IMG/VR virus record: IMGVR_UViG_3300008012_000022
Location: 29,369 to 93,368 of that record
From: a virus
Length of the DNA: 64,000 nt
Direction: 5' to 3' (one strand)
Part shown: piece by piece, positions 8,998 through 61,856 of the stretch
How the letters are laid out: the number at the start of each line of letters is the position of its first letter
Numbering within the stretch: the stretch's first letter is position 1
Made by a program: the position numbers and the translations under genes
Notes under the pieces: model-generated
Told to the model about the DNA's origin: nothing
The model's input: the letters and a program-made list of their open reading frames with translations, nothing else
The model's database searches: none

Positions 8998-9140
8998 TAT
9001 ACAAAAATAAACACTCCGAGAAATATCCCCACTACAAGGCTCTGCACAAGACCTTGCCACCACTCGTCACTAGTATTAAATAATACAAGATAAATAGGTA
9101 CTGTTAACGCTAGTTGCTGCCAATAAGTAACTTCAATCAT
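8997..9140 (-). CDS. small two-TM membrane protein (47 aa)
   Basis: MIEVTYWQQLALTVPIYLVLFNTSDEWWQGLVQSLVVGIFLGVFIFV; ATGA and TAATG overlaps at both ends; absent from the ORF track. Confidence 0.7.
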   Translation of the reverse strand: MIEVTYWQQLALTVPIYLVLFNTSDEWWQGLVQSLVVGIFLGVFIFV

Positions 9141-9448
9141 CGAATAAGTTCCCCCATAATAAATGTGTCAGGTCCACAACGTGTAGTATTGACAGCCTCT
9201 TGAATATCCAGAATAATTTGCTCCAACAAAATACCTTGATCTAACTTTATTTGGACTTCGTTGCGGTCCTTATCTGCTTGCGCCCACCGAACACCTTCGA
9301 CACGGAACACAGCTAGTTCTACTGCTGACTCACAGTTGCCACAACCCATACCTTCAATAGCTATGACTCGTGCATCTGCTGGATATTCTACTTTTTCGGC
9401 GCACCCAATTAGTGCTACTGCCGCTATGATTGATAGTAATAATTTCAT
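9137..9448 (-). CDS. heavy-metal-associated (HMA; CopZ/MerP-like) lipoprotein
   Basis: Signal peptide with lipobox ALIG-C; IEGMGCGNC metal motif; VEGV. Confidence 0.8.
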   Translation of the reverse strand: MKLLLSIIAAVALIGCAEKVEYPADARVIAIEGMGCGNCESAVELAVFRVEGVRWAQADKDRNEVQIKLDQGILLEQIILDIQEAVNTTRCGPDTFIMGELIR

Positions 9449-10080
9449 TTTTGATAACAACTCCACACTGCCGCATTAGCTTCCTCAGTGCAGAAATCTT
9501 TTAAGTTTTCATTGAGAACAGTAGCAGAAATCTCTCCATACCAACTCTCATGCCAGTCCCATCGTTTGCCTAAATATTCGGCCTCAAATATTTCTTTGTT
9601 TGGTGCGTAGTCGTGAGTCATGATGACATCACCCGTTTTAAGATATGGAGAAAGTAATTGGAACTCAAGGTTTTTGTCACCACCATCACAGAATACTAAC
9701 GATTGACCTTCGTTTTGAATTATTCCTCCAATTCTTTCTATCATATGAAATATGTTACCATGCACCCTCATAACTCTATTGGACAGTTTCGATTTCTCTA
9801 ACGCTTCAATATCGTAAGCATAAATGGGAATATTTCTTGATAAACAATGATCATGAAGTAATGAGGTAAAACCTCCATGACGATAACCCAACTCAAGAAT
9901 TCTCATTGGTGAAGTTTCACGCGACAACTTATTTAGAAACTCAAATATATTATTGTTTTGTTCTGTTCTAACCCCTTTATAGAAAAAAGGATAATAGTCT
10001 TTGTCAGGGAACTCAGGATCAGGAACCACATTGTTCATGTTTATTCCATAGCGCCATCTTTTATATAATTTCTTTATCAT
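9445..10080 (-). CDS. class I SAM-dependent methyltransferase-like (CmcI-like)
   Basis: ILELGYRHGG, VFCDGG, LKTGDVIMTHD. Confidence 0.65.
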   Translation of the reverse strand: MIKKLYKRWRYGINMNNVVPDPEFPDKDYYPFFYKGVRTEQNNNIFEFLNKLSRETSPMRILELGYRHGGFTSLLHDHCLSRNIPIYAYDIEALEKSKLSNRVMRVHGNIFHMIERIGGIIQNEGQSLVFCDGGDKNLEFQLLSPYLKTGDVIMTHDYAPNKEIFEAEYLGKRWDWHESWYGEISATVLNENLKDFCTEEANAAVWSCYQK

Positions 10081-10907
10081 ATCCACCAATCTAGCACATA
10101 GTCTGGTCTTCCATCATAATTTGGTTCATCCAATCCATCAACTGGAAATTTTTCGCGCCTGACTCCGAGATCCTTACCCCACTTCTTACTTATATATGTT
10201 AGCTCAAGAGAGTCAGGGAAGTCTACGTGTCGTGGCGCGTGGTTGTTAGCGTGCATGTGCCACAACCAAAAATGTTTGTTTAGACCCTCAAAGAATCTCA
10301 GTCTACCAGCAAAGTCACGCTTTGCCTGTGCCAACTGTGGCTCAAGCACCCATCCATCAGGAACTTCTTCGATTAAAGAATGAACCTCAATACATATGAC
10401 AGCGAAGTAACTCTTAAGCAGTGCAAGGTTATCATCATTTAACCAATCATATTCGTGACCTTCAATATCCATCTTCAACACATTAAAGTCAGAACCACCT
10501 CCAAACGTATTTTCTTTAAGATGTTTATGAAAGTTGTCTGCCGTTAAATATTCCTTGTAGAACTTTCCGTATTGTATTTTAGCAGGAACTTCATCAATGG
10601 AACCGTCATACATAGATATCCAATTATAATCTTTATCTAACGACTGTTCAAATGATACACCCTCAGGATCGTCGCCAATACCATATGACAAAATCTGTAA
10701 TGGTGAGAACTCCACCATTTGTGCAGGTAATACATAAGACCCATCACCCACACCACAACGACAGAACTTATAAGTATAACTCCAGTATTTACCGTCGAAT
10801 TGACTGCTCAAACGACCAGTCCAATTTTTCATCTCTACATTGTGCGGCACCAGTAGATCTTTTAGGCGCTGATATTTATTTGGATTCTGTTCATCAAAAA
10901 AGGTCAT
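10077..10907 (-). CDS. FkbM/Methyltransf_22-like methyltransferase
   Basis: GDGSYV, LSYGIG...SFE, LKMDIEGHEY, IEVH, HANN. Confidence 0.75.
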   Translation of the reverse strand: MTFFDEQNPNKYQRLKDLLVPHNVEMKNWTGRLSSQFDGKYWSYTYKFCRCGVGDGSYVLPAQMVEFSPLQILSYGIGDDPEGVSFEQSLDKDYNWISMYDGSIDEVPAKIQYGKFYKEYLTADNFHKHLKENTFGGGSDFNVLKMDIEGHEYDWLNDDNLALLKSYFAVICIEVHSLIEEVPDGWVLEPQLAQAKRDFAGRLRFFEGLNKHFWLWHMHANNHAPRHVDFPDSLELTYISKKWGKDLGVRREKFPVDGLDEPNYDGRPDYVLDWWI

Positions 10908-11100
10908 TGTAAATAAGGTAAAAAATTCCAGATATTAACACAAGAAAGCTTCCTATAAATATCATTACGGTATAAAAACGATGGAAAAAGGAATAGAGTG
11001 AAGGGGTATAGCGCCCGAAATAATGGTTGGCGATTAGACCTAAGACCGCAAAGCTCCAAAATAACCAACAGTATAGATGTAACTCTATACTATCTTGCAT
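10894..11100 (-). CDS. small membrane protein
   Basis: Two hydrophobic segments; start at MQDSIEL avoids a long overlap with the GT2 gene. Confidence 0.55.
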   Translation of the reverse strand: MQDSIELHLYCWLFWSFAVLGLIANHYFGRYTPSLYSFFHRFYTVMIFIGSFLVLISGIFYLIYNDLF

Positions 11101-12037
11101 AACAAATACATGGGTTATTGTTTTCTGTATACCCCCCACAGTGAGGACAAACCATATAATTTTCCTCAAACTCTTCGAAAGTCATCAAATTCTCATAATT
11201 TAATTTCCAATATTCCCATTCGGGGGTTTCAGTCCCGTCCAATTGTGATGGGTCAATTGTTGCTGGTTTCTTATTCCACACTTCGAATGAATTATCTGCC
11301 CACGCATTAATGATACGACCTTCCTCAGGCCAATTACCACCTAATGCTAGCTGCCATTCAGACTCGTCAAGCGGCGGAAACGAAAACCTTTCAGTAGGTT
11401 TCTTTAAACAATATACCACCTTTGTGTCGGGGTGATGTTTCCAACAACTACCATCTGGATTGCTACGAACAGAATCTCTACCCTTGTCTATGAATAGCGG
11501 CGAACCATTTGGTAGTCTAACTGTATAGAATCTATTCAAATCTTCTGCTTCCAAATAATTTTGGACGCACTCTTCTGTCCACTTCAAGTCATCGAGCGGA
11601 CCCGGCCCTCCAAAATTCTTTGGTACGGTGAGATAGAAATCGCGGCCTATAAATTGTGCCCTTTCACTATACCCTCCGTTACCCTGATTACCTGCTAAGT
11701 CTACGTATGTATAACCTTGATTTTCTATCAGGTCAACAAAGCCTCTAATGTCTGCTTCGTATACTGGATTAGCTAGTTCATGATCTACTTGAATATAGAA
11801 TGCATACTCACTCTGACACTGACTGAATAATTGCACGGTGCCAGCACCACAACCAATATTGATCTGGTTGTTGATTACCTCCACCCTCTCTTCACGAGCA
11901 TACTTGTCAGCGTATCGTTCGCCACCATTGTTGAGAATCACCACCTTGTAATCGAAGTGACAAAGCCTCCTGATGGATGATAGTAGTTCCTCCAGTTCCT
12001 TTGGTCGATTGTAATCGAGTATAAGAATTTCTGTCAT
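11090..12037 (-). CDS. glycosyltransferase family 2 (GT-A)
   Basis: ILILDYNRP...LLSSI, VVILNNG, NIGCGAG. Confidence 0.75.
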   Translation of the reverse strand: MTEILILDYNRPKELEELLSSIRRLCHFDYKVVILNNGGERYADKYAREERVEVINNQINIGCGAGTVQLFSQCQSEYAFYIQVDHELANPVYEADIRGFVDLIENQGYTYVDLAGNQGNGGYSERAQFIGRDFYLTVPKNFGGPGPLDDLKWTEECVQNYLEAEDLNRFYTVRLPNGSPLFIDKGRDSVRSNPDGSCWKHHPDTKVVYCLKKPTERFSFPPLDESEWQLALGGNWPEEGRIINAWADNSFEVWNKKPATIDPSQLDGTETPEWEYWKLNYENLMTFEEFEENYMVCPHCGGYTENNNPCICYAR

Positions 12038-12582
12038 GCTATTATTCTAACCTTTTTAGGGAAGAACTTACATTCATATTCCCTCATATAATTCTCTGGT
12101 TTCGATTGGTGAAAGATAGGCATCGGCATATCATCTTCGAGTTCTTCGATAGGAAAGCGCCGATCATTAAACATACCGCTCATAGCTATACGATGATAAC
12201 CTTCGATAGCTTCCTCTGAACCTGATAGTGTAGCGAAAACTGTCAGTTTAGGTATGTGAATAAGACCTCTATCGTCATCGAACCTCATCACCTTCTCTCC
12301 ACACAGATAGTATGTTCCCCTGTGATTCTCTTCTAGATCGTTATCTATCAATTCTTCATCAGGTATATCGACTTGACGTTTCTCCCACCAACCCCTAATG
12401 TAATCTGCCATGTAGGTCTTGCCAGTTGCAGGGGGCATGATGAATAAATTATAATCATACTTTAAGTAGTCACTCCATATTTGATTCTGACAATTATAGG
12501 TCCACTCAACTTCTGGAAGTGTTGGTAATGCTGCGGCTAGAGGTGCTACAACCGCTGTCTTCAATAAATTTCGTCGCTTCAT
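12034..12582 (-). CDS. twin-arginine-leader protein with terminase-like fragments
   Basis: MKRRNLLKTAVVAPLAAA leader; MPPATGKTY P-loop; YMREYECKF. Confidence 0.6.
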   Translation of the reverse strand: MKRRNLLKTAVVAPLAAALPTLPEVEWTYNCQNQIWSDYLKYDYNLFIMPPATGKTYMADYIRGWWEKRQVDIPDEELIDNDLEENHRGTYYLCGEKVMRFDDDRGLIHIPKLTVFATLSGSEEAIEGYHRIAMSGMFNDRRFPIEELEDDMPMPIFHQSKPENYMREYECKFFPKKVRIIA

Positions 12583-12586
12583 ATCA

Positions 12587-12772
12587 CTAAATTATATTTG
12601 ATACTTTGTCATCTATGATGATTCGACCCTCATGAAGCTCCGCATACCAACCAACCTTCTTTGACCTGTCAACATAAACAAGTTCGTCTTGAATCCTGAC
12701 TTCTATCTCTTCCTCTTGTTTCTTTATAAAAGGAAGTGCACAAAATAATTTTAATAAATTTCGCCGCTTCAT
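12587..12772 (-). CDS. twin-arginine-leader mini-protein carrying the major-capsid C-terminal peptide
   Basis: MKRRNLLK leader; VDRSKKVGWYAE identical to the MCP peptide at 55338..55373. Confidence 0.8.
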   Translation of the reverse strand: MKRRNLLKLFCALPFIKKQEEEIEVRIQDELVYVDRSKKVGWYAELHEGRIIIDDKVSNII

Positions 12773-13167
12773 GATAGTTTCTTCGTCATGATTGGGTTCC
12801 CTTTCTCATCTACGTTAGGATTGCTGAACGGATCACCTTTAACTTCAGATTGTGACCTTTTTGATTCCTTTTCTGGTTTACATTCATCAACAAATTTAGG
12901 AATTTGCCCCGCTTTTAGTTGAGCGTCAAGTTCTCTCTGTTCCTCTTTGAGGTCAGCAAGGTCAAGTTCTAACGCAAGAACTTCTTCTTTTGCACGTCGA
13001 AGATAGATCGCAAAATCTAAAGCTTCCTCATATGCATGTTGTAACCATTCACGATGCGACAGTGGATTTTCTTCAACCGTCGTTCCATATTTCTCCTTAC
13101 CGAACTTTTGACGAGCGGCGATATCTTCACACACTCGCTTCTCTGTTCCTTCTACTTCAATTTCCAT
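12769..13167 (-). CDS. phage protein, possible all-alpha NTP pyrophosphatase fold
   Basis: RQKFGKEKYGTT...WLQHAYEEALDFAIYL. Confidence 0.5.
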   Translation of the reverse strand: MEIEVEGTEKRVCEDIAARQKFGKEKYGTTVEENPLSHREWLQHAYEEALDFAIYLRRAKEEVLALELDLADLKEEQRELDAQLKAGQIPKFVDECKPEKESKRSQSEVKGDPFSNPNVDEKGNPIMTKKLS

Positions 13168-13173
13168 AGCTAT

Positions 13174-13254
13174 TTATCTCAAAAACGCCCAAATCCATAG
13201 GGCACCACCTGCTATCAAACTACATATTATATAGCCAACGCAGAATTTTATCAT
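13174..13254 (-). CDS. 26-aa single-TM peptide
   Basis: MIKFCVGYIICSLIAGGALWIWAFLR fills the gap. Confidence 0.4.
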   Translation of the reverse strand: MIKFCVGYIICSLIAGGALWIWAFLR

Positions 13255-13265
13255 CTGTTTATCAT

Positions 13266-14912
13266 TTAGCCTTCGCATACTGAACATTCGTTCAAGTTCT
13301 TGCGATAGAATGTCTGCGCTGCATTTGATGCGTTGTGCTGGTAATACAATGATTTAATACCATTCTCCCACGCATATATTAGCAGTTCATTCATTTCTTT
13401 CGCTGGTGTGTCAGGATGAATCATCAAGTTAGTTGATTGACCCTGATCAATATAGGGTTGTCTCCCTGCCGCTTGCATAATAATATCCTTCGGCGCTATC
13501 TCAGGAAACGTTTTAAAAACTTCCTTCTCGTGATCATCAAAGACGTTTAAGTTTTGAATTGATCCATCGGCTAAAAGAATTTGTCGCCACACCTTTTCAT
13601 CAATGTTTCTTTCCGCAAAAAGTTTCACTAATTCAGGGTTCTTAATCGGCGTATCGATCTTTGCCAATTCTTTGGTATAGTAATTCTTCCAGATTGGTTC
13701 TTTTGACTGAGATACTTGACCGAGAATAAAAGCAGATGAAGTGTTCGGCGCTAAAGACATTCGTGTTGCCCATCTCTCGTTATATGGTGCCATCATTCGT
13801 GTGGTCCCATGAGTCTCAGCCATCTTACGTGACGCTTCAAGACTCTGTTCATCCATGAGGCTAAAGATTTCTTTGTTCAACTGTAATGCCTCAAGTGATC
13901 CGAATGGAATACCTTTCGACTGCAACAGTGAGTGCCAACCTGTAGCTCCCATACCGACTGCACGATGCTCCGCAGCAAATCTTACAGCACGCTCCATGTG
14001 TGGAACTAAAGACGCTTTAGCAATGAACTCTGACATTATTGCATCAAGAAACTGCATCATGATTTCTACTGCATCAGTGTCTTTCCAGTCGTGATAGTGC
14101 AGAAGATTCATCGATGATAAACAACACACAAAAGATTCTTGAGTGTTTGATGGCAGCATGATCTCAGAACATACATTCGATGCATAGATTTCCTTTTGAA
14201 GATCCTTATAAACTTGCGGCTTGTTATCGTTTACGTTGTCGCTAAAAAAGATATAAGGTAGACCTATCTCAAAGCGAGACTTGATTACCTTAGCCCAAAT
14301 TTTTCGTTTTTCTACATCACCTTCAATCATTTCCCGCATCCATTGATTGGATACAGTGACACCTGTAAATAGATGCTGGATAGGATGACCTTCATGTTTG
14401 ATTTGTAAGAACTCTTCGATATCACCATGATCAATAGGAAGGTAACAGGCACAGATCCCGCGCCGAACTTTTGACTGTTTCGACACGTCAACAGTGACGT
14501 TATTTATCCGCATGAATGATACCGAACCATCTGACTTGCCACCTGTTGAGATTTTTGAACCTCGTGATCGAACAGCACCATAGTATGCGCTGGTTCCACC
14601 ACCCATTTTGCTCATCATTCCTATCTCAGAATTCGTATCAAGAATTCCCTCCATAGTATCAGGAACATACGATCCAAAACATGAGATAGGAAGTCCGCGC
14701 TTGCGACCAAAGTTCGCCCATACAGGAGAAGAAAAAAGAAAATGTCCTTTGGCAGCATGGTCAAGGAATCTGTCTGCGAAACCCTTGATACCGAGAATTA
14801 TTTCTGCTGTAGCGGCGATATCACGAACCCTATGAATTGGATCTTCACCCTCTTCTAAGTATCCACCCGAAAGAAAGATCTTAGATTTTTTGTTAAGCCA
14901 TTCGAAATCCAT
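13266..14912 (-). CDS. nrdA: class I ribonucleotide reductase alpha subunit (no ATP cone)
   Basis: SSPVWAN, PISCF, GGGT, SNVCSEI, APNTSS, DQGQS, KSLYY, C-terminal CSVCEG. Confidence 0.95.
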   Translation of the reverse strand: MDFEWLNKKSKIFLSGGYLEEGEDPIHRVRDIAATAEIILGIKGFADRFLDHAAKGHFLFSSPVWANFGRKRGLPISCFGSYVPDTMEGILDTNSEIGMMSKMGGGTSAYYGAVRSRGSKISTGGKSDGSVSFMRINNVTVDVSKQSKVRRGICACYLPIDHGDIEEFLQIKHEGHPIQHLFTGVTVSNQWMREMIEGDVEKRKIWAKVIKSRFEIGLPYIFFSDNVNDNKPQVYKDLQKEIYASNVCSEIMLPSNTQESFVCCLSSMNLLHYHDWKDTDAVEIMMQFLDAIMSEFIAKASLVPHMERAVRFAAEHRAVGMGATGWHSLLQSKGIPFGSLEALQLNKEIFSLMDEQSLEASRKMAETHGTTRMMAPYNERWATRMSLAPNTSSAFILGQVSQSKEPIWKNYYTKELAKIDTPIKNPELVKLFAERNIDEKVWRQILLADGSIQNLNVFDDHEKEVFKTFPEIAPKDIIMQAAGRQPYIDQGQSTNLMIHPDTPAKEMNELLIYAWENGIKSLYYQHNASNAAQTFYRKNLNECSVCEG

Positions 14913-15133
14913 TATCGTTCGCTTATTCCTCGTGGTTCAGGTTTAGGAAGTTTGGTGCCGAAAATTTGAGTATTACAATCTTTCGTTGGACAGTCAATAT
15001 GAAATAGTGTCTCATTCCTGTCATGAGATGATGAACCTTCTTTTCTTTGCCACTCTACAATTGCTCCACACGTATGACACTCGCCTCGATATAAATCCTC
15101 TGATGGTGGATGACCCTCTTTAATAATTCTCAT
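14912..15133 (-). CDS. small zinc-ribbon protein
   Basis: CHTC...CPTKDC. Confidence 0.65.
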   Translation of the reverse strand: MRIIKEGHPPSEDLYRGECHTCGAIVEWQRKEGSSSHDRNETLFHIDCPTKDCNTQIFGTKLPKPEPRGISER

Positions 15134-16143
15134 TAGAATAAATCGTTCTCTGAAATCGCCTTATTTTTGCGCACGTAATTAGTTGGTCGCTGATTGAAAA
15201 AATCTACATGGACACCAGCAATTAGCTTCTCGTCAAACCATCTGGTTTTTTCAAGACGAGCTTCATTTACGTCAAATATAGGGTCTAATCCTATTCCTGT
15301 CAAGCTTTCATTTAGCCTATTCTTAATAAAGTCTTTCACTTCTAAGATTTTTATATGATCTGGCTTGCATCCATCCACTGTTGGTTCAAAGATTAAATCG
15401 CCATCAGGAAAAATCCATTTCAATAACTTCTCTTCAGCGCGATAAGCCTTGCGAGAGTAGAGGTAAATGAGTTTTTTTAACTCATCATTGAAAAAGTCAG
15501 GATGTTCTTCTTTAATCTGGTTGATTAACCACGTGCCAAACATTCCATGAATTGCTTCCTCCTTCGAAGTTGCCGCGACTACATTGTTGATATCTACCAG
15601 CCACTTGCGATGCTTGTTGAAGGATTGAATGATAAAAAACTGAGAAAATAACGAAACATTTTCTATAAAAAGAGAAAATAAAATGATTGATTTGAGGAAA
15701 TTCTCTTCCAGTCTTGCCGTGGAGAACTCTTTATATTTCGTTAGGTAAACGTGACGGTCATTCACCGCAGGAATTTCTTTAATCTTCTCGAACTCTTCGT
15801 TTAGCCCCAAAATTTCTAACAGTGCAGAGTATGCATCAAGATGACGTTTCTCTGACTCACCAAATGTAGCGCCAACTCCGAGCACTTCTGGTTTAGGTAT
15901 GTGACGATGTAGGTTGCACCAGAAAGTTTTGACGCCAACCTCTACTTGAGATATTAGAAGTAGGCATTTCTTAATTACCTCTCTTTGGTAATCATTTAGT
16001 TCGGTGTGATATTCTTGAATATCTGTTGTAAAATTAAACTCTGTATGTACCCAATAGGATTGTCGGATTGCTTCTACGTAATCTTCACAGATTGGATACT
16101 CAAGTGGTTTAATATTATCTCTCGGTTCGAATAAGTCGCTCAT
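15133..16143 (-). CDS. nrdB: class I ribonucleotide reductase beta subunit
   Basis: YWVHTEF, ESEKRHLDAYS, ENVSLFSQF, KEEAIH, DFFNQRPTNY. Confidence 0.95.
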   Translation of the reverse strand: MSDLFEPRDNIKPLEYPICEDYVEAIRQSYWVHTEFNFTTDIQEYHTELNDYQREVIKKCLLLISQVEVGVKTFWCNLHRHIPKPEVLGVGATFGESEKRHLDAYSALLEILGLNEEFEKIKEIPAVNDRHVYLTKYKEFSTARLEENFLKSIILFSLFIENVSLFSQFFIIQSFNKHRKWLVDINNVVAATSKEEAIHGMFGTWLINQIKEEHPDFFNDELKKLIYLYSRKAYRAEEKLLKWIFPDGDLIFEPTVDGCKPDHIKILEVKDFIKNRLNESLTGIGLDPIFDVNEARLEKTRWFDEKLIAGVHVDFFNQRPTNYVRKNKAISENDLF

Positions 16144-16639
16144 GGTTTGTGTCTAATTGATTAAGTTGCGCGAACTCACCAAACAAACACATGGCTTTTC
16201 GATTATAAGCCTTAGCAGCTTCGACTTCTGAATCAAATCTGCCGATCCAAATCTGTTTTCCTTCGAAACGAATACTTGCCAACCATTTAGAGCGTCGTTT
16301 CTCCCAACAAACCCCCTTGTATTGACTAGTAGTTTTAGCTTTTTTAAATCGATTACGGTTATTTTCTGCTTGAGTGCATTCGCGTAAATTTGAAAAATGA
16401 TTATTCTGTACGTTACCATCTTTATGGTCTACGAATTCAGGCCAATAATCATTTTCCAAAAAGAACACAAGGCGATGAACATAAAATGTTTTTTTGCCGT
16501 CTTGTGTTTCTAATATTAGGCGCAATTTTTTATTATCACGCCTAACAGGAGATGAAATTCCTTTCTTAGAAATAACACCTTTAGACCTATTGTAATCGAC
16601 TTGATTAAGAAGTTCTGCTCTGGTTAATAAGTTTTTCAT
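16115..16639 (-). CDS. HNH homing endonuclease with AP2 domain
   Basis: HRLV, VDHKDGNVQNNHFSNLR, YKGV...W.A.I...IGRF..EVEAAKAYN. Confidence 0.9.
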   Translation of the reverse strand: MKNLLTRAELLNQVDYNRSKGVISKKGISSPVRRDNKKLRLILETQDGKKTFYVHRLVFFLENDYWPEFVDHKDGNVQNNHFSNLRECTQAENNRNRFKKAKTTSQYKGVCWEKRRSKWLASIRFEGKQIWIGRFDSEVEAAKAYNRKAMCLFGEFAQLNQLDTNHERLIRTER

Positions 16640-17108
16640 AATTAGTATCCAGATCAGAAATGGGCATATCATAGACATCTAATTTAGCCACAAAGCCGTT
16701 CTCTTTGCACACGTCACCCTTGCGGACACGTATACCCTGAGAAATTAATTCGTCGTGTTTTTTAAAGCCGAGAAACCAGCCTTTTGTTAAATTTTTATGC
16801 ACACGCACGAACGCATAGTAATCACAGTCCTGTAAATAATAATCAGCAATGGTGCACATATAATGAGGTAGTGGAGTTACCGAAGTCATTTTGGTTTTAA
16901 CGTCTATTGTTAAACCATTCTCTAGAACGAGATCGTATTCGTATGTGTTTGCAAATTCGCCGCCTAAAACATGTTGTGCGATGTGCTCTCCTATAAAACC
17001 AACTAAATTCCCTGCACCTTTTCTGATCGAATGATTGAGATGACCTAACTCATCTGCTTTTTCTTTTGCGGACTGATACCACTCGTCTGTGACTTCAAAC
17101 TCGATCAT
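16605..17108 (-). CDS. hypothetical protein, PD-(D/E)XK-like
   Basis: GFIGE...YDL...IDVKTK. Confidence 0.55.
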   Translation of the reverse strand: MIEFEVTDEWYQSAKEKADELGHLNHSIRKGAGNLVGFIGEHIAQHVLGGEFANTYEYDLVLENGLTIDVKTKMTSVTPLPHYMCTIADYYLQDCDYYAFVRVHKNLTKGWFLGFKKHDELISQGIRVRKGDVCKENGFVAKLDVYDMPISDLDTNYEKLINQSRTS

Positions 17109-17535: not shown

Positions 17536-18153
17536 ATGGATAACGATTTTATGCAGTTTTCAGGGTCTAACAGGTCCGAAATGGACGACAATTATCTCGT
17601 ATCGTTGGTAAAAGATGAAGCAGATGAGGGAGCTTTGTTAGAGTTGATGGAACGTCACAGTGGCATCTTTCATCAGACCGTAGCTAACTTCATGCCGCCA
17701 TCTTATACGAATTCTCAGCGGGAAGATGTCTTTGAGGAAAAGCCGACTTACTTCTTCGAAGCTATCGCCTCATTTGACGAAGCTCGTAACGCAAAATTTT
17801 CAACATGGCTTGCGAATAAAACTAAGTACACTCTACTTACTCAAAGGTCAAAGGTAAAGGGTCAACCTACATTCTGTGAGTATGACGACAGCTTAGGCGG
17901 CGAACATGGACTGTCACCAGAAACATATCTGTTGCGAAAAGACCAGTCAGAAGAAATTCTAAATTTGGTCCTTGACAAATATGGATCTGAGGTCTACGAT
18001 ATCGTGAAGCAGAAATATTTTGGTGGTGAGAAGAAGACTGGACAAACGTTCAGTCAAATTGCTGACGGTTTAGGGGTATCACCTCAAGCCATTCAAGCAA
18101 AACATAAAGACGCCATGTTATTTTTGAAAAAGAAACTATCGTATGATTTTTGA
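17536..18153 (+). CDS. sigma-70 family RNA polymerase sigma factor
   Basis: Region 2 AIASFDEARNAKFSTW; region 4 HTH TFSQIADGLGVSPQAI. Confidence 0.85.
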   Translation: MDNDFMQFSGSNRSEMDDNYLVSLVKDEADEGALLELMERHSGIFHQTVANFMPPSYTNSQREDVFEEKPTYFFEAIASFDEARNAKFSTWLANKTKYTLLTQRSKVKGQPTFCEYDDSLGGEHGLSPETYLLRKDQSEEILNLVLDKYGSEVYDIVKQKYFGGEKKTGQTFSQIADGLGVSPQAIQAKHKDAMLFLKKKLSYDF

Positions 18154-18610
18154 TCGGCAAAAAATTCTGGAAAAATACAATTATAATCCAGATATGGGAA
18201 TCTTAATAGCGAAAGATTCTGCCAAAATTATTGGTGCTTTAAATACTAGTTCAAAATATTTACAAATAAAACTTGATGGGCAGCAACCCTTAGTTCATCG
18301 AATTATTTATTTTTTAGAAACAGGAGAACAACCTGAAATTGTTGATCATATTGATGGTGATACTCGTAATAACCGTATTACTAATCTTCGCGCCTCAAAC
18401 AACCAATTTAATCAAGCTAATCAAATTCAACATAGGGGCTATTCGAAATATAAAGGTGTTTGTTTAGACCGTAAGTATTGGAAAGCTAGCATTCAATATA
18501 ATAGAAAATCTATCCATATAGGCAATTTTAAAACAGAATTAGAAGCAGCACAAGCTTACGATAAGAAAGCAAAAGAACTTTTTGGAGAACACGCACGCAC
18601 AAATTTTTAA
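18143..18610 (+). CDS. HNH homing endonuclease with AP2 domain
   Basis: HRII, VDHIDGDTRNNRITNLR, YKGV, EAAQAYD. Confidence 0.9.
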   Translation: MIFDRQKILEKYNYNPDMGILIAKDSAKIIGALNTSSKYLQIKLDGQQPLVHRIIYFLETGEQPEIVDHIDGDTRNNRITNLRASNNQFNQANQIQHRGYSKYKGVCLDRKYWKASIQYNRKSIHIGNFKTELEAAQAYDKKAKELFGEHARTNF

Positions 18611-33497: not shown

Positions 33498-35034
33498 TAA
33501 AATAATTGTAGGCTAATACCGCTTGAACTGTCTGTTTAAGTATGTTTTCCGTTGTAGTTTGGCGCACCAAAAAAGAATAATCTGCATCAGGCGCAAACCC
33601 ACTAGCAAATGATAATGCATTTGGCACTAAAACATCATTAGTTTTTGCAGTTAAAGATACATTAATCGTTCTTTCTCCGAGCGTTTTACCTGCTCCTTGT
33701 ACTAATATCTCTTCGTCACCGTAGATAGGAATAACAGTATCTCTACTCACAGGTTTTCTATCTGAAATAGTTGCTGTTCGAAGTAGAGTGCCATCTGCTA
33801 ATCCAGAAAACTGTGGATCAGTAGAAAATCTAGAGGTGTCAGACACGGTGTTGCCGAAGGGTTCAAACGAAACATTTCTGTCAACTTCGAAAAGTTCGCC
33901 AGAAGTTACTTCGGGAAAGAGAACTGGAATTTTACTGTATGGCAAGTTGGTGTTACTCTTCCAATAATCTTTGTTACGAGTAAACTTCGTAACGTCGTTC
34001 TTTCCCCTTGACGACACCGTTAGGTTAAAAGTGAAACTGTCAAAACCCTCTGGCGATTCGGTCTTCGCCGCAGAGTAGTCTATATTTGTATTATTATTTC
34101 GGCGCGGGTCATTTGTGAATTCTACATCTAATGTAGCTACATTACCCTGCTCTGATACCCCTTTTGAAATAAGGGTGGGTTGACTGTAGGCACCCGTGTT
34201 AGCTTGAATTACAGCGTCTAATGTGCCAGTGATACCATGTATTATATTCGCTTCGTATGGTTCAGAAAGCGCCCGAATTTCAAACGAATAATTTTTTAGT
34301 TTGTATCCATCTGACTGTAGCACCGTCTTCGAAGTCTCTGATTTAGAAAAAGGAAGGTTAGCAGTTGTTTCTATCCTGCTAGTTTCTAAAGATTCTGAAA
34401 ACTCGACACTCTTGTTAAGTATATCAATCGATTCAGTTGCGACAGGTTTAAGTCCCGCATCTACTCTTCCCCATTCAGAAATACCATCTTCCTGAAACCC
34501 ATAAGCTGGACGGTTATTTAGATATACATTCTTTAAGAATAAGTATGCTTTGTTTAAAAACTCACCACCAGCATCTTGACGATACTTTAACGAAACACTT
34601 CGTTCATAACTATATGAATTCTCGCCGCGATTAAAATTAAATGACTCAGAGAAACTTTCTATATCTTGTGGCGACGGAATTAAATCAGTAAGATTAGATA
34701 GAGCGCCATCTTCTTCAATACGTATACGTTCTTCAATGACAATGCTGCCTTTGGTTCTGTCTACCCCACGTGATTCATCAAACTCAATTGATACTACGTT
34801 ACCGTTACGAAATTCGTCAGCGCCGATTTTCGCCGCTATATTAGGTTGAGCATAAGCAGTTTCAATTGCTTCCATGCCCACTTGTAATTTATCATCTCCA
34901 TCTTCTCCAGTAACATCTTTCAAATGGAAAGAGTAATTGGCAGACACTAATAAACCCCACATGTGTTCACTACCAAAATATTGGAAGCTAACACTGGTGT
35001 TAGAGTTATCTATTTTTGAGATGTATAATTTCAT
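33490..35034 (-). CDS. putative tail protein (distal-tail position)
   Basis: Immediately follows the tape measure; beta-rich. Confidence 0.55.
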   Translation of the reverse strand: MKLYISKIDNSNTSVSFQYFGSEHMWGLLVSANYSFHLKDVTGEDGDDKLQVGMEAIETAYAQPNIAAKIGADEFRNGNVVSIEFDESRGVDRTKGSIVIEERIRIEEDGALSNLTDLIPSPQDIESFSESFNFNRGENSYSYERSVSLKYRQDAGGEFLNKAYLFLKNVYLNNRPAYGFQEDGISEWGRVDAGLKPVATESIDILNKSVEFSESLETSRIETTANLPFSKSETSKTVLQSDGYKLKNYSFEIRALSEPYEANIIHGITGTLDAVIQANTGAYSQPTLISKGVSEQGNVATLDVEFTNDPRRNNNTNIDYSAAKTESPEGFDSFTFNLTVSSRGKNDVTKFTRNKDYWKSNTNLPYSKIPVLFPEVTSGELFEVDRNVSFEPFGNTVSDTSRFSTDPQFSGLADGTLLRTATISDRKPVSRDTVIPIYGDEEILVQGAGKTLGERTINVSLTAKTNDVLVPNALSFASGFAPDADYSFLVRQTTTENILKQTVQAVLAYNYFNE

Positions 35035-38000
35035 TATTTGCTTTTAACTGGTTTAAAATCAAATTCGTAGGTCGTAGCTCCTCCAGTTAATTCTTTTGCA
35101 TCTGCTTCATTTGCAGCTTCACGCAGTTTATCAAACACATCTCTGATCGCGGGAACATCGATAGCTTGACTTACTTCTGCTAATGCCGCGTTAGCACGCT
35201 TCAACTCTTGCGCTACCGCTTCTGAATCTTTCGCCGCAGTAGACATAAAGCCGTTGAACTTCTTCATGTTACCTTGAAACTCAGTTAATGAATCATATAG
35301 AGGTTTTGCAGCAGTATCAATTTTAGCTTTAATCTGATCGCCTAAAACATCTTTGTCTGTTGCAGTTTCAGACGTACCTTTATTCTTAAGAGCATCTTCG
35401 TCTAGTAGGGTATCAATATCTTTCTGTTCTTTATCGAACTTGCTACGTATCTTTTCTTCTTTAGTTGCGTTTGCTCTAGCAGTGTCAGCAAATCCGAGCG
35501 CAGTAGTTCCCGCGACACTTTGTTGAATGATGCCACCCATCTCAGATATTAATGAGTTAACCACTCCACGTAGTTGCTCTCTACCCGCTTCATCGTTAAG
35601 AGGGATCTGGCGAATAGCAGCTTCACCTGCTGTTTTAGTCTGTCTTATTAAATCAATAGATGATAGAACGTCTGATACGGAATCAGCGTTTTGAAGTTGA
35701 GAGAACTGTCTAGTGATTCGATTAACAGGTCCACCAATTTGTCTACCTAATCCTTCGGCCCTTCTGAAATCTAGTTTTTGAAATACTTCTTCCTGAACTC
35801 CTTTGCTGAATCGAACACGACCATTCTCATCTAAAGGTTCAGTTTCACGAGCAATGTTTGTCGCTTTACGAAACGCTTCGAATGTTTCATTACGGAAAGT
35901 AACCTTACCTGAATCACTTACTTCTTTACCTAAAATATCATCAATATTAAATATTTGATTATTGGCTATATTAGAACGTAACCGAGAACGATCTTGTCCT
36001 GCTACTCCTAATTGATCAAACAATACATCGTTGTTAGCGCCGAATGGATTGTTAATATCTATAGTATTTAATCCAGCATTAGGTTGACCTAAGTTTCTAA
36101 ATTTCGCGGCTAAATTATCTACACTCTGACCATACTGTTGAAGGAAAGCTTTGTTTTCAGCACGTGTGCGCTCAAACGCAGCACGTTCTTCAACCATTCT
36201 CTGCTGTTGTAGTTGAACCATCCCCGCGAACAGTTCATGGTTGGCGCTTCGCCATTCCTCAATACCCTCAACATTGATTCCTTTTTTAATGATTTCATCC
36301 ACTTTATCTTCGAACGCTTCAAACGCATCTTTAGTAAGAGGTTTATCGTCATCTATAATAAAGTCTCGAAAGTTTGTTAAATCATTAATTTCTTTTGATC
36401 TCGCATCACGATTTCCGAATGCACCTGAGATTAATTTCTCGCCGCGTAAAGCTTCTTTAGCTTCGGCGGATAATGCATTTAATATACCACCACGAGCATC
36501 ACCAATGAAAGACTTATCTTTAATCTTTACTCGGCTGAATGCTTGAAAGAATTTCTTGTTATCTTCAATACCTCTTAGTTTTGATAGACTAATAGTTTCT
36601 TTTTCGATTCGCTTTGCAATGATATCCTCTGCACGTTTCGCTGCATCTGCTGGACTCTTATCATCAGAAAAATCGAACTCTCCACGTCGCCTTTTACCAT
36701 CAATAGTTTTACGAATAGTTCTCTTGTTTTCAAAGTTAGATCTAGCGAATGTTTCTGCAAATTTCGGATCATTAAGAGCAGTTCTTATATTGTCTACGCT
36801 TTTATCGAAATCAACAATGTTTATTTCAGGCAGTTCAGTACTTAAGTTGAGAGCACTATCAGCATCATTTTTTGCAAGTCTTAGTTTTTGTTCTTCAAGC
36901 TTGAGTAACTTCTGAGACTTTCTGTTTGCTTCATCTGCCGTTCCTTCTGGTAAAAAGCGAGCAAGTGATTCTTGTAAAGATATTTGATTACGCGCCGAAC
37001 CAAAGTCAAACTGTTGGAATTGCTTATCACGTTTTGATATTTGACCAACACGTGATTTTACTACTGTTCTAGTAGTATCTATTCCTAAGTCATCAAATCT
37101 TTGGCGCTGCTCACGTAGTCTATCAATCTGTCCTACTACACGTTCGCCTTGAATTCTTTGTCTACGTGCTTCTGCTTGAGCATTAGACACAACATTGAAA
37201 CCAGTAATTCTACCATCTGCTCCATATGTAGCTAATCTTTCTTGACCCTCTCCAGCTTGTACTGAATTTTCAATTTGATATTGGCGCTCTTGATCATTTA
37301 GTTGGTCAATGGTAAACCCTGTTAATGGTTTGGCAAAGAACTCAGTTAAATTACGAACAGTCGGAAGTTTAAGTTCAAAATTTGCTAATTCTAATCCTGT
37401 TTTTCCGAGAGATTTTCCGAACTTTTCAAGACCTATATCTCCTTCTTCCGCAGAAACAGAAAGGCCCTTTAATGAAGGAATTATATCACTGAAAGAAAGA
37501 CCAAAGTTATCTATTTTACTACTTCCTCCAATTAATTTCCCATCAAAGATATCAAAGTTCTTTTCTACTTTACCAATATGCTTTCCTATAGCATCGAACG
37601 GGGCAGTCAAGGTTTGTATAGCTACGCCTTGAATCGTTTTAAATGTATCGCCTTCTTCCTTTCCTTCTCTAAATAGTTTGGTGCTTAGTCTATCTTCTTC
37701 ACTAGTTTCACCTATCTCACGTTTACGCGCCTTATTAGCAAGAATACCACCACCAATTGCTAAGGCTAATGCGGCAGCTATAGCACCTCCTACAGCAAGA
37801 CCTGTTCCACCTGCTACACTACCACCTATAGCAGTAAGAGCTTTACTTGATCCTGCTGCTGCTAATGGTCCTAACGGAACATTCGACGCTGCTTTACCCA
37901 ATCCTTTCACCGCACTAGATAGAGGTTCCATGGCTGATACAGCAGCCAAACCTAATCCTGTAAATAGAGAAATCTTTCCTGACATCTCTTCTGCCGCCCT

Positions 38001-41000
38001 TGAAGCACTTCTTAAACCACTTTCAGTTTGTTTAATGGCTTTTGTTAGTTCTGCGTGACGTTCAGGGTTGATTGCCTCATCAGTATTCTCAAGCTCACGA
38101 ACTAATTCGCGCAATTTCAAACTAAGTTTATCTACTTCTGGTTGAGATTTGTTAAATTTCTTATTAAGTCCTTCATCTAATTGAGGTAATAAAAATGATG
38201 CAGCAAAACTAAGACCGAGAGCCGCACTACCTAAACGCCCGCCTTGCTTTGGAGGTTTTGATGATTGTGTTCTATTTTGAGATATTCCAGAAAGAGATGT
38301 AGATTTACCACGTCTAGCTCTTGCTCTAACCCTTTTTCTATCACGTTCACGTGCCTTTTTATCTTCTGCTCTTTGTTGAGCGGCGGATAATTGTCTATTT
38401 GGATCATCGTCTGGTAAGCTAGAGAAATTTCCACCTCCACCACCTCCACCAGTGCCTCCACCTCCACCAGATCCTATGCCACTACCAGATCCAGTGGCAG
38501 CACCAGCGCGACGTGTATTCAATATAGCGCCCGTAACAGGATCTATAGAAGTTGCCCCACTACGAGATAATACAGGAACAGGTCGTGGTCCTACTGAACC
38601 ACGACGAGTTAATGGTGGGACTTGTGGCGCTCTCCGAACACCTATAGTTCTATCACCTTGTTGTTTAGTGCGTGCTAACAATGTCGGCACAGGAGGTTTA
38701 CCTCTTCTGACTGCGACACGTGGAGGTCCACCACGACCTACTACTCTGCCACGGTTTCTTTTAGCAAATTGTTCTTGACGTGCTCGTGCTAATACATCGT
38801 TTCTAACCAATCTCTGTTTGCCAGTTTGAGGATCGCTCACAATAGTATAACCACTATTCGCCGCTTGAAGTCTCCTTCTTTGGTCTGGTGTTAATTCCTC
38901 AGGATCTATTGATGCAGGTTTAGACTTCGCTGCTTTTTTAGCTGGCTCTGATGGCTCAGGTGCAGGATCAGGTTCAGGTGCCCGTCTTTCTCCTGATGGT
39001 GATGCAGGTATAGCACCTGTGTCTGGATCAAATGGAATTCTCTCTTGAGTTAGCGGATTTACAAGTTCGCCGCTAGCTGCATCGAAGATAAACATATCAT
39101 CGGCAAAGTTTGGCGTTTTGCCTTTCACCATTTTCTTAACAGCTTTAGTAGCCTCAGGGAATAACTTTCTCCATTGTTTGGCACGAGCAGTATTACTAAA
39201 TGCCATAGCATAAGTCTCTGCAAAAAACTCTTGATCACTCAAGTTAGATACAGCAGAATCAGCTAATAAATTATTCGCTAAATTACCAGCGAAACCATTT
39301 CGGCGCTTGTCACGTTGTAGTGCAACTCTAAATCCTGCTGAACTAGATAACAATCCTGCTAAACGATCCCCTGTAGATGCCCCTACTCTTGTTTTTGAAA
39401 AATCAAAAGCATGACCAGATTCATGAAGTAATACATTTAGTGCTTCCTCTTGTGCTCGTTTACCACCGATACCACGTAGCCCCAATCTTGTGTTACTAGT
39501 TAAACCTAATATACCTGTTTCGCTATCGAAGCTACCACCTAATCCACCTCCACTGATGTTACCAAATCTTATACGTCCACCATTTGGACCTTGACTTAAT
39601 AAAGTGTCTAGTTGTTTACGAGGTAACCTTTTGAAAAGTTCTTTTACATCTTTGTTGTGTGCAAACTCTGTGCCTTTAAGAAGTTTGTTTACTCTGCGTC
39701 TTTTACCACCTAATAGGTCAAACAAACCAGCAGCACCACGTCTACCCAATCCACCAGCAAATCTTACGCCTCTACCTATATCTCTGATAGCATCAGGAAA
39801 TCCTCTGATAGCATCTCCTGCAACACCATATATACCTTGACTCTTTTTCAAAAGTTTGAAGGCGCGACTATTAGTGATTCTTTGAATACGTGAAAAGTTA
39901 GGGTAAACATGCTTACCCGCTATAAGGTCACGATTAGATACAGATGATGCTCTACCACCAGCTTGATCACGAGTATTCGTTACCACTAGACCCATAGGGT
40001 TGTGGCGTTTCGCTAATGGGTGAGTGTCTAATCTTACCTGATGTGGTTTAACACCTGTTCCTGTAGTTTCTCGCGCAACAGCATCAGCAATAGGATTCCG
40101 CGCAAATGACGGTATTGTTCCAACACCCTCATCAGGAATTTTTATTCTATATTGAGGATTATTAAGCTCCCATTCGACTAGCTCTTGATCGCTGTTGATT
40201 TCATTTTTTTGTCGTTTTAACTTTTTTTCTTCTTTACGGAGTTTTGCTACCCTTTTTGCTTCCGTAGGATAGTCACCAACACGTGGCGATTTGGCCCATA
40301 CATTAGACCTATAGAAATCTCCATCCCTATGAATACCCTCAACAGGTTTCGTTGTTTTGATCTCACGAGTTGTAGAATTAATCTCAGCAATCTCATCAGC
40401 TATATCATCAATACGTGGCTGAATAACTCTTTCAAAATTTTCCGCTGCATTAGTTTGAGCCTTTGATAAAATTGAAGGCATAGCAGCAGTTCGTTCCCGA
40501 AGTGCACGTAAGTTTGTTATTCCATAAGAGTTCTCAGTTAACCAAAATCTAGCACCTTCCTGACCAACTACCTTCTCTAGTTCACTAGCAAATTGTTGCG
40601 TTATTTCCTGATCAGGTCTATCGAAATCTAATAGTAATTTACGAGCGCCCGTTCCCGAAACATCCGTAGCAGATCTAGCCTTAACAACTACAGCATCAAA
40701 TACATCATCGATTAAATCTTTAGAGGAATCGGGATCAAAGTGAGTAAATAAAGATGAACCCGCTTCTTCACGAGTAAGTTTTATATTATCATCAAAAGCT
40801 GGTAGTTTAACACCAGCATCATCTAGTTTATCTTGACCAGCCACACGGATACTACCTTTGGTTGGTCGAACAATATCACCTTGAGCGTTTCTAACAAAAG
40901 GAAGTCTACTACTAAAACCTTCTCTGAAATCTGTATTAGATACTGATACCGCTGGACCTTCACCTATAGTAGCCGCAGCAATATTGGCGCGATCTCTTTG

Positions 41001-44000
41001 GTTCAATAGTTTACCGCGAAGACCATGATCATCAAAACCACCACCTCCAATTACTCCTTCTGCTTGCTTCTTACTAAAGCTTCCTCCATGCGAAATAAGG
41101 AATACAGTATTTTCTGGCGCAATGCCATGTTGACCTGCAATCCTTGCTAAGTCTGCGTGTCCCGCAGTTGTTGGTGAAAAGCCTCCAACCGCTACAGCTA
41201 CTTGACCACTCTTCAACTGTGGCGTATTTCCTTTAAGAAGACGACCATCATTCAATGTTACATCATGCAAACGCGCCAAACTTGATCCAAAGTTCTCTCT
41301 AATGTTTACGAACGCTGGTCTAGCACGATCACCTGCACCACCAATTTCAAACTTGCGGCTAGCTTCAATTGCAAGACCTTCAAGTATAGCAGTATCAGTA
41401 GTTGGTTGTCTACCGAATCTAGCTTGACCCGCTCGTTCCAATCCTTCGCCAGTGCTTGAACGGAAATGTCTACGTCTTAATATCTCTGAGTGTGCTGGAT
41501 TTTCGCGACTTGAAAGCACTACGATTCTATTCAGACCTTGAACTATATTTCTATCAATACCTTCACCTTGAATAGCATTGTTCAACAGTGGCGAAGCAGA
41601 AGTCTCTGATCTTGCGATGATAACATCGTCCAATGCATCAATGTCCGCAGGAGTAAGAATGTCTACTGTCTTCTGTCCACCGAACGCTTGTCCTGCTTTA
41701 CCTCTATTTCCACCACGAGATAAGAAAGTTTTTCCTGCACCTACTGGACCAACAACTAAGCTAGTTCTTTTTTCTTTTTCAATAGCGCGTTGTGACAGGA
41801 ACTTGTTATAGTTAGCTACGCTTTGTGGAGGTAGTTTACCTGTCATGGCATATTGATGATAACCTTGAGCATCAATAATACCATACTCCAACATAGCGTC
41901 TGCTACCTTATCTACATTCTTTGGATTTTGTAGAACATCGGAATCAATTATACCTTTGCTACGTCGTGTTCCTTGAATAACATCTCCAGCTTCGTTTTCA
42001 AACTGTCGCAATGGTCCACGTTGAAGTTCGCCGCCTGTCAGTTCTCTAATCTTACCATTCGACGCTCTTGCAAATATTCTTGCGAAGTTAGGTATATATC
42101 CTTTAGCAAAGGTAATACGATTTTCAAGACGACCACCTATTCTTGAACCCATACCTGTAACACGTCGCTCAAGGTCAGCCATATTTTTAAATGGCCCATT
42201 AGCTTCACGTTCTCTTACGATAGCCCGTGCTCGATCTGCATCAATCAATGGTAATTGTGCAGCAACAAGATCATCTACTGATACTCTATTGATATTTGGA
42301 TCGTGCCTTCTACCAATTTGATTAGCTGCACGGTGCCTGTTAGCTGATGTATCATTCGGATCAACTACATGTTGTGATAGTTCAGATCCTCCTTTACCAT
42401 CACTTCTATATAAAGTTTCTAATTTCGGCGCACCCGCTGAACTTGTTAGTTTAGCTTGTAAATCAGCACGACGCTTCATTTCCTCAGGGGTGATGTGTCC
42501 ACCACTGATCATCATAGTTTGAAGCTTCTTAGGAACTTTACCAGCTTCTATTTGTGCCTGACTAAAAATAGGTTTACCTAAAGCATTTTGAATAGTAAGT
42601 ATATCATCAAAACTCTGTAACGGAATTCGAGCAGCAATAGCTTCACTCATTGCTGGACCAACACCATCATATGCTGCCTCGATAGCTTTAGCATTACCCA
42701 ACTTGTTGATTTTATTAACCATACTTTGGGCTGGACCAATCGCGCCTGTAACTGGTGTAACTAGATCATCAAAAGCGTCATCAAACTTCGGCGCTCCCTT
42801 CTTCTTCGCCAAAAGGATTCTTTCAAAACGAGATTCTGTTTCTGATAAGCGGCGAGTTTTACCAGTTTGAGGGCGATGAGGAACAATAGCGAATTCTGGC
42901 TGTTGCGCTATCTCATCCATCAACTCGAAAATTTCATCGAGTTCATCAGGTTGGCTACGAGTAGCAGCGCGAATCTTTTTTGTCCGTCCGCGTAAACCTA
43001 ATTCTTTTCTTTCAGCACTAGATAGATGCTCTAAACCACTAGTTAGAATGACCCTATCATTCCTCTGACTAGCTGGTAAAAGAGAAGTGTCTGGTTTTTT
43101 TCCTAACTGACCAGATAATGACATAAGATAGGCAATCTCTTCTGGTTCTAAGTTATCTAAACTAGTCAGATGAATTTGTGGATCACCAGTTCTTTTTGAC
43201 TTATGAATATTGCTTACGCTTGAAGTAATTCTTACTCTTCTACCATCTGGAAGTGTATGGACATAATCAAGTGGCTCATGAACACGTCTTGAATCAGGAC
43301 CGTATCTTTGAGTTGATGGAATGTGATGGCGGCGATTTATACGAAGCGAAGCAAAATTCGGAAAGACACCTTTGGTTCCTGCTAACGCTTGATAGATAGC
43401 AGAATTCATTCCCCTATCATTTCCTAATGCAGCTAATAGATCTTTAGAGCTTGCATATCCCTGTTGTATTCCACGGGATCTGTTTATACGACCGTCAGCA
43501 TAGGAACCGAGAAGTGTGTTTAAAGATTCTCTATCTCTTACCGACAATCGTTGAAACATTGGATTCTCATATAACGCAAAGAAGTCTACATAATCTGTTT
43601 GTTTCGGATTACGGAATGGTGGTTTGCGTAATGGTCTACGTCCACCACCTGTATTGAAGCGGTTGAAATTACTACCACCACGTCCATGATGAAAGGAAGC
43701 GAAGTTTGGCACATCACCTGCGCCAACGTCACCAACTGCTGAAAAAGCGACGGGTGTATCAGGAAGTTGTTTGGCCGCTGTTGATAGATGAAACAACCTA
43801 TCTGGCTCAGGATTTTTAACCCCTGCAAGTTTAAATACTTTCGCTAAATATTCACGAAATTCTGCTTGTTCTTTAAGAACATATCCGACAGACTCTTTTC
43901 CTTTAGCTTCTCGTATAGCATGAAATTTTTTACCAAAATTAGCTGATTGAGGTGGATCAATTAATTTAAAAGCTTCGGCTAGCCTTTGTTGTTCTTCTTG

Positions 44001-61484: not shown

Positions 61485-61856
61485 ATGCCCTGTAAAGATA
61501 AAAAATCACAAGCTGAATCGGCTCGAAAACATTACCTAAAAAATAAAAAGGTAATAAAAGCTAAAGCGGCGAATTTTAAATCTGAAACGGCAATACCACG
61601 AAATAAAAAATTTGTTCGCGAATATTTACTTAAACACCCTTGTATAGACTGTGGAGAAAGTGATCCAATCGTGTTAGAATTTGATCATGTTCGTGGAATT
61701 AAAAAAGGAAACATATCTAATATGGTAAATCAAGCATACTCTATTAAAAGAATTAAACAAGAAATTGAGAAATGTGAAGTGAGATGTGCTAATTGTCATA
61801 GAAGAATAACATTTTATCGCAGAATAGAGCAGTCTGGTAGCTCGTCAGTCTCATAA
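61485..61856 (+). CDS. HNH endonuclease
   Basis: CIDCG, LEFDH, EIEKCEVRCANCHR. Confidence 0.9.
   Translation: MPCKDKKSQAESARKHYLKNKKVIKAKAANFKSETAIPRNKKFVREYLLKHPCIDCGESDPIVLEFDHVRGIKKGNISNMVNQAYSIKRIKQEIEKCEVRCANCHRRITFYRRIEQSGSSSVS

Follow-up and report, generated by a model that had tools for sequence, protein, structure and literature searches.

An orphan mini-ORF of a freshwater phage joins a diverged fragment of the major capsid protein to its neighbor's leader

The mini-ORF and its genomic setting

The window analyzed here, a stretch of 64,000 nucleotides, forms the right-hand part of an IMG/VR viral record of 93,368 bp that has been judged approximately 67% complete and has a G+C content of 39.6%. 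On its minus strand lies a 61-aa ORF, below called the mini-ORF, whose parts, neighbors and capsid counterpart are collected in Table 1. It sits in a long leftward gene string that also holds both ribonucleotide-reductase (RNR) subunits, a GT2 glycosyltransferase and an FkbM-type methyltransferase. An ATGA combines the start codon of the mini-ORF with the TGA that ends the upstream 132-aa gene, and only 4 nt separate the TAG of the mini-ORF from the ATG of the 182-aa gene that follows. The mini-ORF is thus tightly packed between its neighbors. On the minus strand from 9 to 18 kb a search for terminator-like sites found none, and promoter-like sites occur at a frequency no better than chance. 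The mini-ORF has no Shine-Dalgarno motif, which is uninformative because just 10 of the 65 large genes in the whole record have such a motif upstream. The same count suggests a host that uses Shine-Dalgarno-independent initiation.

Table 1. Positions in the window of the mini-ORF, the genes on either side and the related capsid gene.
Feature	Position	Strand	Remarks
Upstream gene, 132 aa	12769..13167	-	phrog_11184 domain; stop overlaps the mini-ORF start
Chimeric mini-ORF, 61 aa	12587..12772	-	ATG start, TAG stop
Codons 1-8 of the mini-ORF (MKRRNLLK)	12749..12772	-	Common to the next gene; ATG in the ATGA overlap
Mini-ORF residues 14-57 (P0127)	12602..12733	-	Block aligned to the C-terminal region of the major capsid protein by BLASTP, HMM and hhalign
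Mini-ORF residues 33-56 (P0126)	12605..12676	-	Conserved core; all capsid-family invariants in range retained
Island of 12 residues identical to the phage's own major capsid protein	12638..12673	-	9/12 codons differ synonymously
Next gene, 182 aa	12034..12582	-	Same 8-residue start, 15-residue uncharged stretch, then a P-loop-like domain
Major capsid protein, 373 aa	55281..56402	-	HK97 fold
Major capsid protein residues 324-367 (P0128)	55302..55433	-	Counterpart of the mini-ORF block; strands predicted at 321-326, 336-340 and 349-358

How far does the mini-ORF extend beyond this record? The exact 61-aa protein is encoded on 21 public contigs, and one further variant, V32I, is known from the searches. 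The phage recurs in freshwater metagenome runs from 14 studies (2017-2018), some of whose samples may be the source of the record. Contigs from four of these runs are identical to the window where compared within 9000..17000, the mini-ORF included, which leaves zero variation for a population test of selection. The carriers are one nearly clonal phage population.

Outside this population, an exhaustive HMMER search of 1.84 billion representative proteins recovered the mini-ORF's own cluster only, and a word-indexed protein search over near and longer lengths recovered that cluster and the V32I variant and nothing else. Nothing similar was found by tblastn in 50,697 records of cultured phages, and no homolog was found in IMG/VR or the JGI metagenomes. 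A degenerate DNA pattern written for the 12-residue island also drew a blank in IMG/VR. Relatives in which the major capsid protein (MCP) or RNR is about 60-65% identical lack the mini-ORF, the 182-aa gene and the 132-aa gene alike. The relative G001 does not have the mini-ORF downstream of its RNR, nor do 80 syntenic RNR neighborhoods contain it, the region being hypervariable and these relatives distant (RNR identities of 63% or less); an RNR-based search of IMG/VR and JGI likewise reached closest relatives of at most 63% identity, none of them with the cassette. The 182-aa gene has no match in IMG/VR, and searches with the 132-aa gene returned, from unrelated phages, nothing but a widespread domain.

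Between RNR and the GT2 gene, relatives carry entirely different small genes, and the locus downstream of RNR is a hypervariable accessory island in which the mini-ORF is an orphan of a single phage lineage. The earlier note, which took the mini-ORF for a capsid mimic, had named absence from relatives as a finding that would tell against it. Absent it is, in the trivial sense that no orthologue occurs in any of the data searched.

Several other features were observed in passing. Downstream of RNR, the two nearest relatives that possess this region carry unrelated small-gene sets (L103, 5283..6083; L107, 5659..8153) that have in common a Cys-containing ORF of 54-65 aa, a signal-peptide-like ORF of 107-124 aa and a membrane-like ORF of 97-112 aa. 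Within the window, divergent paralogous genes at 16115..16678 (minus strand) and 18143..18610 (plus strand) share 38% identity over 157 aa (E = 1e-31). A single 4456-aa ORF in the tail region (35034..48404, minus strand) far exceeds the usual length of a tape-measure protein, and the segment 60900..64000 contains a gene for an HNH endonuclease (61485..61856; phrog_2255) besides small ORFs as far as the contig end.

A capsid-protein fragment behind a shared leader

The relative of the mini-ORF within the record is a 373-aa protein that matches no Pfam or PHROG family and whose alignment profile, compared with the PDB by sequence, was also blank. Its AF2 model, computed from 67 homologs (pLDDT 72.8, pTM 0.71), has a long spine helix (residues 128-160) and strands arranged as in the HK97 fold. 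Submitted to Foldseek, the model gave 245 PDB matches at E <= 1e-3, all of them HK97-fold capsid or encapsulin shells and including HK97, lambda, the P4 procapsid and encapsulins. In the head module, the gene comes after those for a portal-like protein of 764 aa (phrog_2739, E = 2e-5), a 517-aa protein and a 205-aa protein that is a scaffold candidate, and G001 has the identical order of head genes behind TerL, a Terminase_6N protein. Fold and head-module position both confirm that the 373-aa product is an HK97-fold MCP, as the earlier note had called it. No terminase gene adjoins the portal-like gene here, and PF03237 is without a match in the whole record, which was probably cut before its own TerL. 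The corresponding gene of G001, encoding a 635-aa Terminase_6N protein, lies immediately before the portal gene.

When all ORFs of at least 35 aa in the 93-kb record were compared with one another, the mini-ORF and the MCP were among the five pairs under E 1e-3. BLASTP aligns the two with 18 identities in 43 positions (E = 1e-12), and residues 14-57 of the mini-ORF pair without a gap with residues 324-367 of the MCP (hhalign probability 96.9%). Twelve consecutive identical residues had first drawn attention to the pair, and the observation is exact: the island VDRSKKVGWYAE recurs in the MCP gene at 55338..55373, and 9 of its 12 codons differ, every difference being synonymous. The mini-ORF had also been described as carrying the C-terminal peptide of the MCP. 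This is correct as regards homology to residues 324-367, and it overreaches at the very end, where the last 4-6 residues of both proteins align unconvincingly. Only residues 14-57 align, to positions 326-369 of the 375 in the MCP profile, and the fragment is indeed too short for an HK97 fold. The product is a fragment of a capsid protein and lacks the complete capsomer-forming fold; as such, the mini-ORF is a real and unusual paralogous fragment.

From which capsid gene was it taken? Over residues 14-57 of the mini-ORF, an HMM built from 61 MCPs that exclude the phage's own clade gives 31.3 bits, and 32.8 bits are reached when the own clade is included. The island occurs also in the MCPs P0005 and P0006 (86% identical to the own MCP), and the core of 24 residues is one residue closer to the MCP P0016 (17/24) than to the own MCP (16/24), P0016 being 67% identical to the latter overall. 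Between these in overall closeness are P0008 to P0010, with 74-78% identity to the own MCP. Specific mimicry of this phage's own MCP is therefore not supported. On sequence grounds, the homology is to the MCP family generally and the island characterizes a sub-clade; the generic-profile score, the P0016 match and the presence of the island in P0005 and P0006 together indicate that the source was an MCP gene of the own MCP's sub-clade. A donor closer than the own clade was found neither among 5.8 billion proteins nor among the best 120 of 1624 MCP relatives, a search that reaches sampled donors only.

The start of the mini-ORF has a different origin. Its leader, MKRRNLLK, is also that of the 182-aa gene, and the two 24-nt copies have three differences, all synonymous, and no non-synonymous one. 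Of about 5 synonymous sites in the leader, 3 differ between the copies and no amino acid does, an argument for age that amounts to three substitutions in all. A weaker likeness between the two proteins, interrupted by a gap of 6 residues, may extend to residue 20 or so. MKRRNLLK is absent from the rest of the record and from 1.28 Mb of related loci. The ATGA overlap upstream could perhaps be just inherited from the original start of the neighboring gene.

In both proteins KRRNLLK fits the twin-arginine motif ((S/T)-R-R-x-F-L-K-like), and the earlier note called the start of the mini-ORF a twin-arginine leader. Could the product be a Tat-exported peptide of the periplasm or membrane, its start directing the export of a capsid-like sequence? 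The resemblance of KRRNLLK to RRxFLK speaks for this, as does the 182-aa protein, in which the same start precedes 15 uncharged residues and Pfam TAT_signal is matched with 17.7 bits, although that match is itself below the 22.7-bit cut-off. The mini-ORF, however, has only 8 uncharged residues (L9-I16) before KK, where about 12-13 or more are needed, and it lacks both an AxA-type cleavage site and any match in Pfam or NCBIfam. Its leader is, to judge from the residues themselves, a shortened copy of the neighbor's (from 15 to 8 uncharged residues) and not a credible export signal, and export of the peptide strikes us as highly improbable.

The 182-aa protein has features of its own. It contains a P-loop-like motif, PPATGKT, and its low-confidence ESM Atlas model (pLDDT 0.46) resembles N-terminal ATPase clusters of terminase large subunits at TM 0.46-0.47, along with other P-loop ATPases. 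By sequence it matches no terminase family, and BLASTP against the TerL of G001 was not significant. One public variant (P0004) is annotated from a TTG at codon 7. An N-terminal fragment of the MCP was sought within this gene as well and dropped as not significant (hhalign probability 0.3%).

Age and constraint of the core

Against the DNA of the own MCP gene, identity of the mini-ORF amounts to 62% over the core and 40% over the flank, uninterrupted matches reaching 8 nt at most. Synonymous sites of the core are saturated (pS ~1.0, pN 0.19). These values bear out the earlier conclusion that the shared peptide is no fresh DNA duplication. Neither near-identical donor DNA nor a broken frame, the marks of recent scrap, was found: identical runs are short, the frame is open and no closer donor protein came to light.

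Core and flank differ sharply in what they have kept. The core retains R346, K349, G351, E358, G359 and R360, which are all six family invariants in its range, and its substitutions are conservative without exception; flank and tail break the invariants D340, D341, Q342, R366, L368 and G370. Against the MCP position matrix the core scores +51 bits and the flank (residues 14-32) -30 bits, and identity to the own MCP is 16/24 in the core versus 2/19 in the flank (Fisher p = 4e-4). Mean dN to distant MCPs is about equal for the core (~0.38) and the real MCP (~0.34). The contrast between core and flank argues for selection on the peptide, which had been proposed before. To model the alternative, a captured block of 44 codons was allowed to decay neutrally and uniformly down to the divergence of the flank. 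None of the replicates held the core at 16/24, and the frame was open in 9-18% of them; uniform neutral decay of the whole captured block is rejected by this simulation.

Was the flank ever part of the capsid gene? It aligns in register above shuffles (p = 0.02), at rank 6 of about 350 offsets, which suggests, as far as the alignment can tell, that the 44-codon block was captured entire and that the core alone was preserved. Alternatively, capture may have been limited to the core of some 24-26 codons and may have happened recently, the donor being an unsampled MCP and the flanks unrelated. We favor capture of the whole block because of the in-register signal of the flank, the synonymous divergence of the leader and the lack of a closer donor, all three being small numbers. 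The argument for selection is weaker if a core of about 24 codons was captured recently beside unrelated flanks, and the signs of selection are suggestive, not decisive.

Capture of the core only is also the starting point of a wider rival explanation, by which the mini-ORF is a non-functional by-product of recombination. Illegitimate recombination in the hypervariable region downstream of RNR would have put about 24-26 codons of a related phage's MCP beside a duplicated gene start, and the resulting frame would be open by chance, perhaps translated and unselected. Such an origin agrees with the orphan status of the mini-ORF, with the wholly different small genes that relatives hold between RNR and GT2, with the truncation of the copied leader and with the weakness of the flank similarity. 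It agrees also with the position of the core inside normal MCP-family variation, as the match to P0016 illustrates, because the conservative substitutions could then predate capture, having arisen in a working donor MCP. On the other side stand the failure of both donor searches, the replacement of the invariant R366 by K, the synonymous differences between leaders whose residues are unchanged, which imply age with constraint, the intact frame, and the rejection by simulation of decay from a larger captured block. We regard the by-product explanation as a serious possibility and still, on balance, somewhat doubtful.

In the mosaicism model of Hendrix and Hatfull, illegitimate recombination yields mosaic fragments and ORFans in the accessory ("hyperplastic") regions of phage genomes. 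Like mosaic ORFans, the mini-ORF is lineage-specific, lies in a hypervariable region, consists of pieces of two genes and has sharp similarity boundaries. Unlike decaying mosaic scrap, it has an intact frame and saturated synonymous sites, and the invariants of its core are all retained where those of its flanks are not.

Other origins for the repeated peptide were considered and discarded. A role as a silent cassette in MCP gene conversion is rejected by a shared DNA run that never exceeds 8 nt. A target of a diversity-generating retroelement (VR/TR) is rejected as well, as all twelve types of difference occur in core and flank and are not confined to template adenines. Rfam covariance models applied to either strand of 12000..13300 gave no match at E <= 1, and a structured RNA was dropped from consideration.

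Capsid mimicry and its parallels

What, then, might the mini-ORF be for? Our leading explanation, which we put forward tentatively and at slightly less than an even chance, is that it is an old, lineage-specific chimeric mini-gene whose core is under selection and whose product, a small expressed protein, works by mimicking the corresponding part of the MCP. The first 8 codons of the mini-gene, or possibly about 20, would have been copied from the beginning of the 182-aa gene, and the remainder would come from the last ~44-48 codons of an HK97-fold capsid gene of the own MCP's sub-clade. The operon that harbors it is the long leftward one of nucleotide-metabolism and glycosylation genes, in which translation of the mini-ORF is probably coupled to that of the upstream gene via the ATGA overlap. 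Purifying selection would retain the 24-residue core (P0126) only.

A single-sequence AF2 model of the mini-protein (pLDDT 49.7) has four strands at places matching MCP strands and is unsafe beyond this strand pattern; the ESM Atlas offered sub-threshold look-alikes only. In the MCP, the counterpart of the core would be the long pair of C-terminal strands. Given how elements usually follow one another in the HK97 fold, the MCP strands at 321-326, 336-340 and 349-358 presumably form part of the P domain. Within shells of the HK97 type, this domain joins the E-loops of neighboring capsomers (PMC3863775). The mini-protein may be a small beta-hairpin or beta-meander that offers a capsid surface as a free peptide, and it would compete for the usual contact of unassembled MCP, be this an MCP subunit, an assembly factor or a host sensor. 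A predicted complex of MCP and mini-protein neither supported such contact nor gave a verdict.

Mimicry includes, as sub-cases, interference with assembly and deception of host immunity. In the former, the hairpin would bind unassembled MCP, its own or that of a co-infecting phage, and delay or poison assembly, either as a modulator or as a weapon against related phages. The equivalence of the core to an MCP strand pair is consistent with this, as are its about equal match to several MCP sub-clades and the intercapsomer contacts of P domain and E-loop mentioned above. However, the own MCP, which carries the identical island, would be as likely to be poisoned; the P-domain assignment is one that we infer from strand order; and the mini-ORF is not conserved in relatives. 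We consider a role in assembly unlikely. The capsid-redirecting proteins of satellites offer a parallel: P4 Sid (PDB 7jw1), SaPI CpmA/B and the MCP homolog Ccm of PICIs are small or MCP-related and act on the assembly of capsid proteins. They differ in being encoded by satellites, in targeting the capsid of a helper and in consisting of full domains or scaffold-like helices rather than a 44-residue C-terminal fragment.

In the latter sub-case, free capsid peptide made before the capsid would occupy or mislocalize a host sensor of this part of the MCP, by analogy with CapRel, Lit and Avs7. Capsid-sensing defenses are known: the Gol peptide of T4 gp23 triggers the Lit protease, and MCPs trigger CapRel and Avs7 (10.1101/2022.05.30.493996; 10.64898/2026.01.04.697583). 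In these systems a short region or fold of the MCP is recognized by a host defense, which is the basis of the decoy idea, but the epitope lies inside the MCP itself and no separate phage gene encoding it has been described. DSAD1, an inhibitor of the tail-tube sensor DSR2 (PMC11087589), is a nearer likeness in that a phage-encoded protein counters the sensor of a virion protein; it is not derived from the trigger, whereas the mini-protein is a fragment of the presumed trigger. An operon shared with nucleotide-metabolism genes is compatible with expression ahead of the head genes, and the core appears to be constrained. Against a decoy, the peptide is not matched specifically to the own MCP, to which its core is not closest; conservation across phages, too, is lacking, with no orthologue in any database searched; and we found no published precedent for a decoy derived from its trigger. 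An immune decoy therefore seems to us very unlikely.

A more ambitious version would join the mini-ORF and the 182-aa gene in an early cassette of tagged virion-protein mimics, with MKRRNLLK attached to a capsid piece in the one and to a stripped-down terminase-like P-loop domain in the other. The products would occupy or misdirect host sensors of the conserved phage proteome or hinder competing phages, and the mini-ORF would exemplify, in a non-T4 phage, a class of capsid-fragment mini-genes that has yet to be described. We think this improbable. The capsid targeting sequence of T4, a short N-terminal tag on internal proteins, is similar in that different proteins carry a short identical N-terminal tag; here only two genes carry the tag, which is Tat-like instead.

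Our search of the literature found no published case of a phage gene that encodes a detached fragment of the phage's own capsid protein. Should the mini-ORF be a by-product, it would be a clean example of the origin of a chimeric ORFan in a hypervariable phage region, of little wider interest. If instead the core is selected, as under the mimicry explanation that we favor, the sole recognizable content of this gene is a preserved capsid piece of 24 residues, now separate from the capsid gene and expressed alongside metabolic ones. This would point to molecular self-mimicry as a phage strategy, directed against capsid-sensing immunity or used to control or sabotage capsid assembly, neither of which has a published example that we could find, and it would provide a very small and easily testable reagent.
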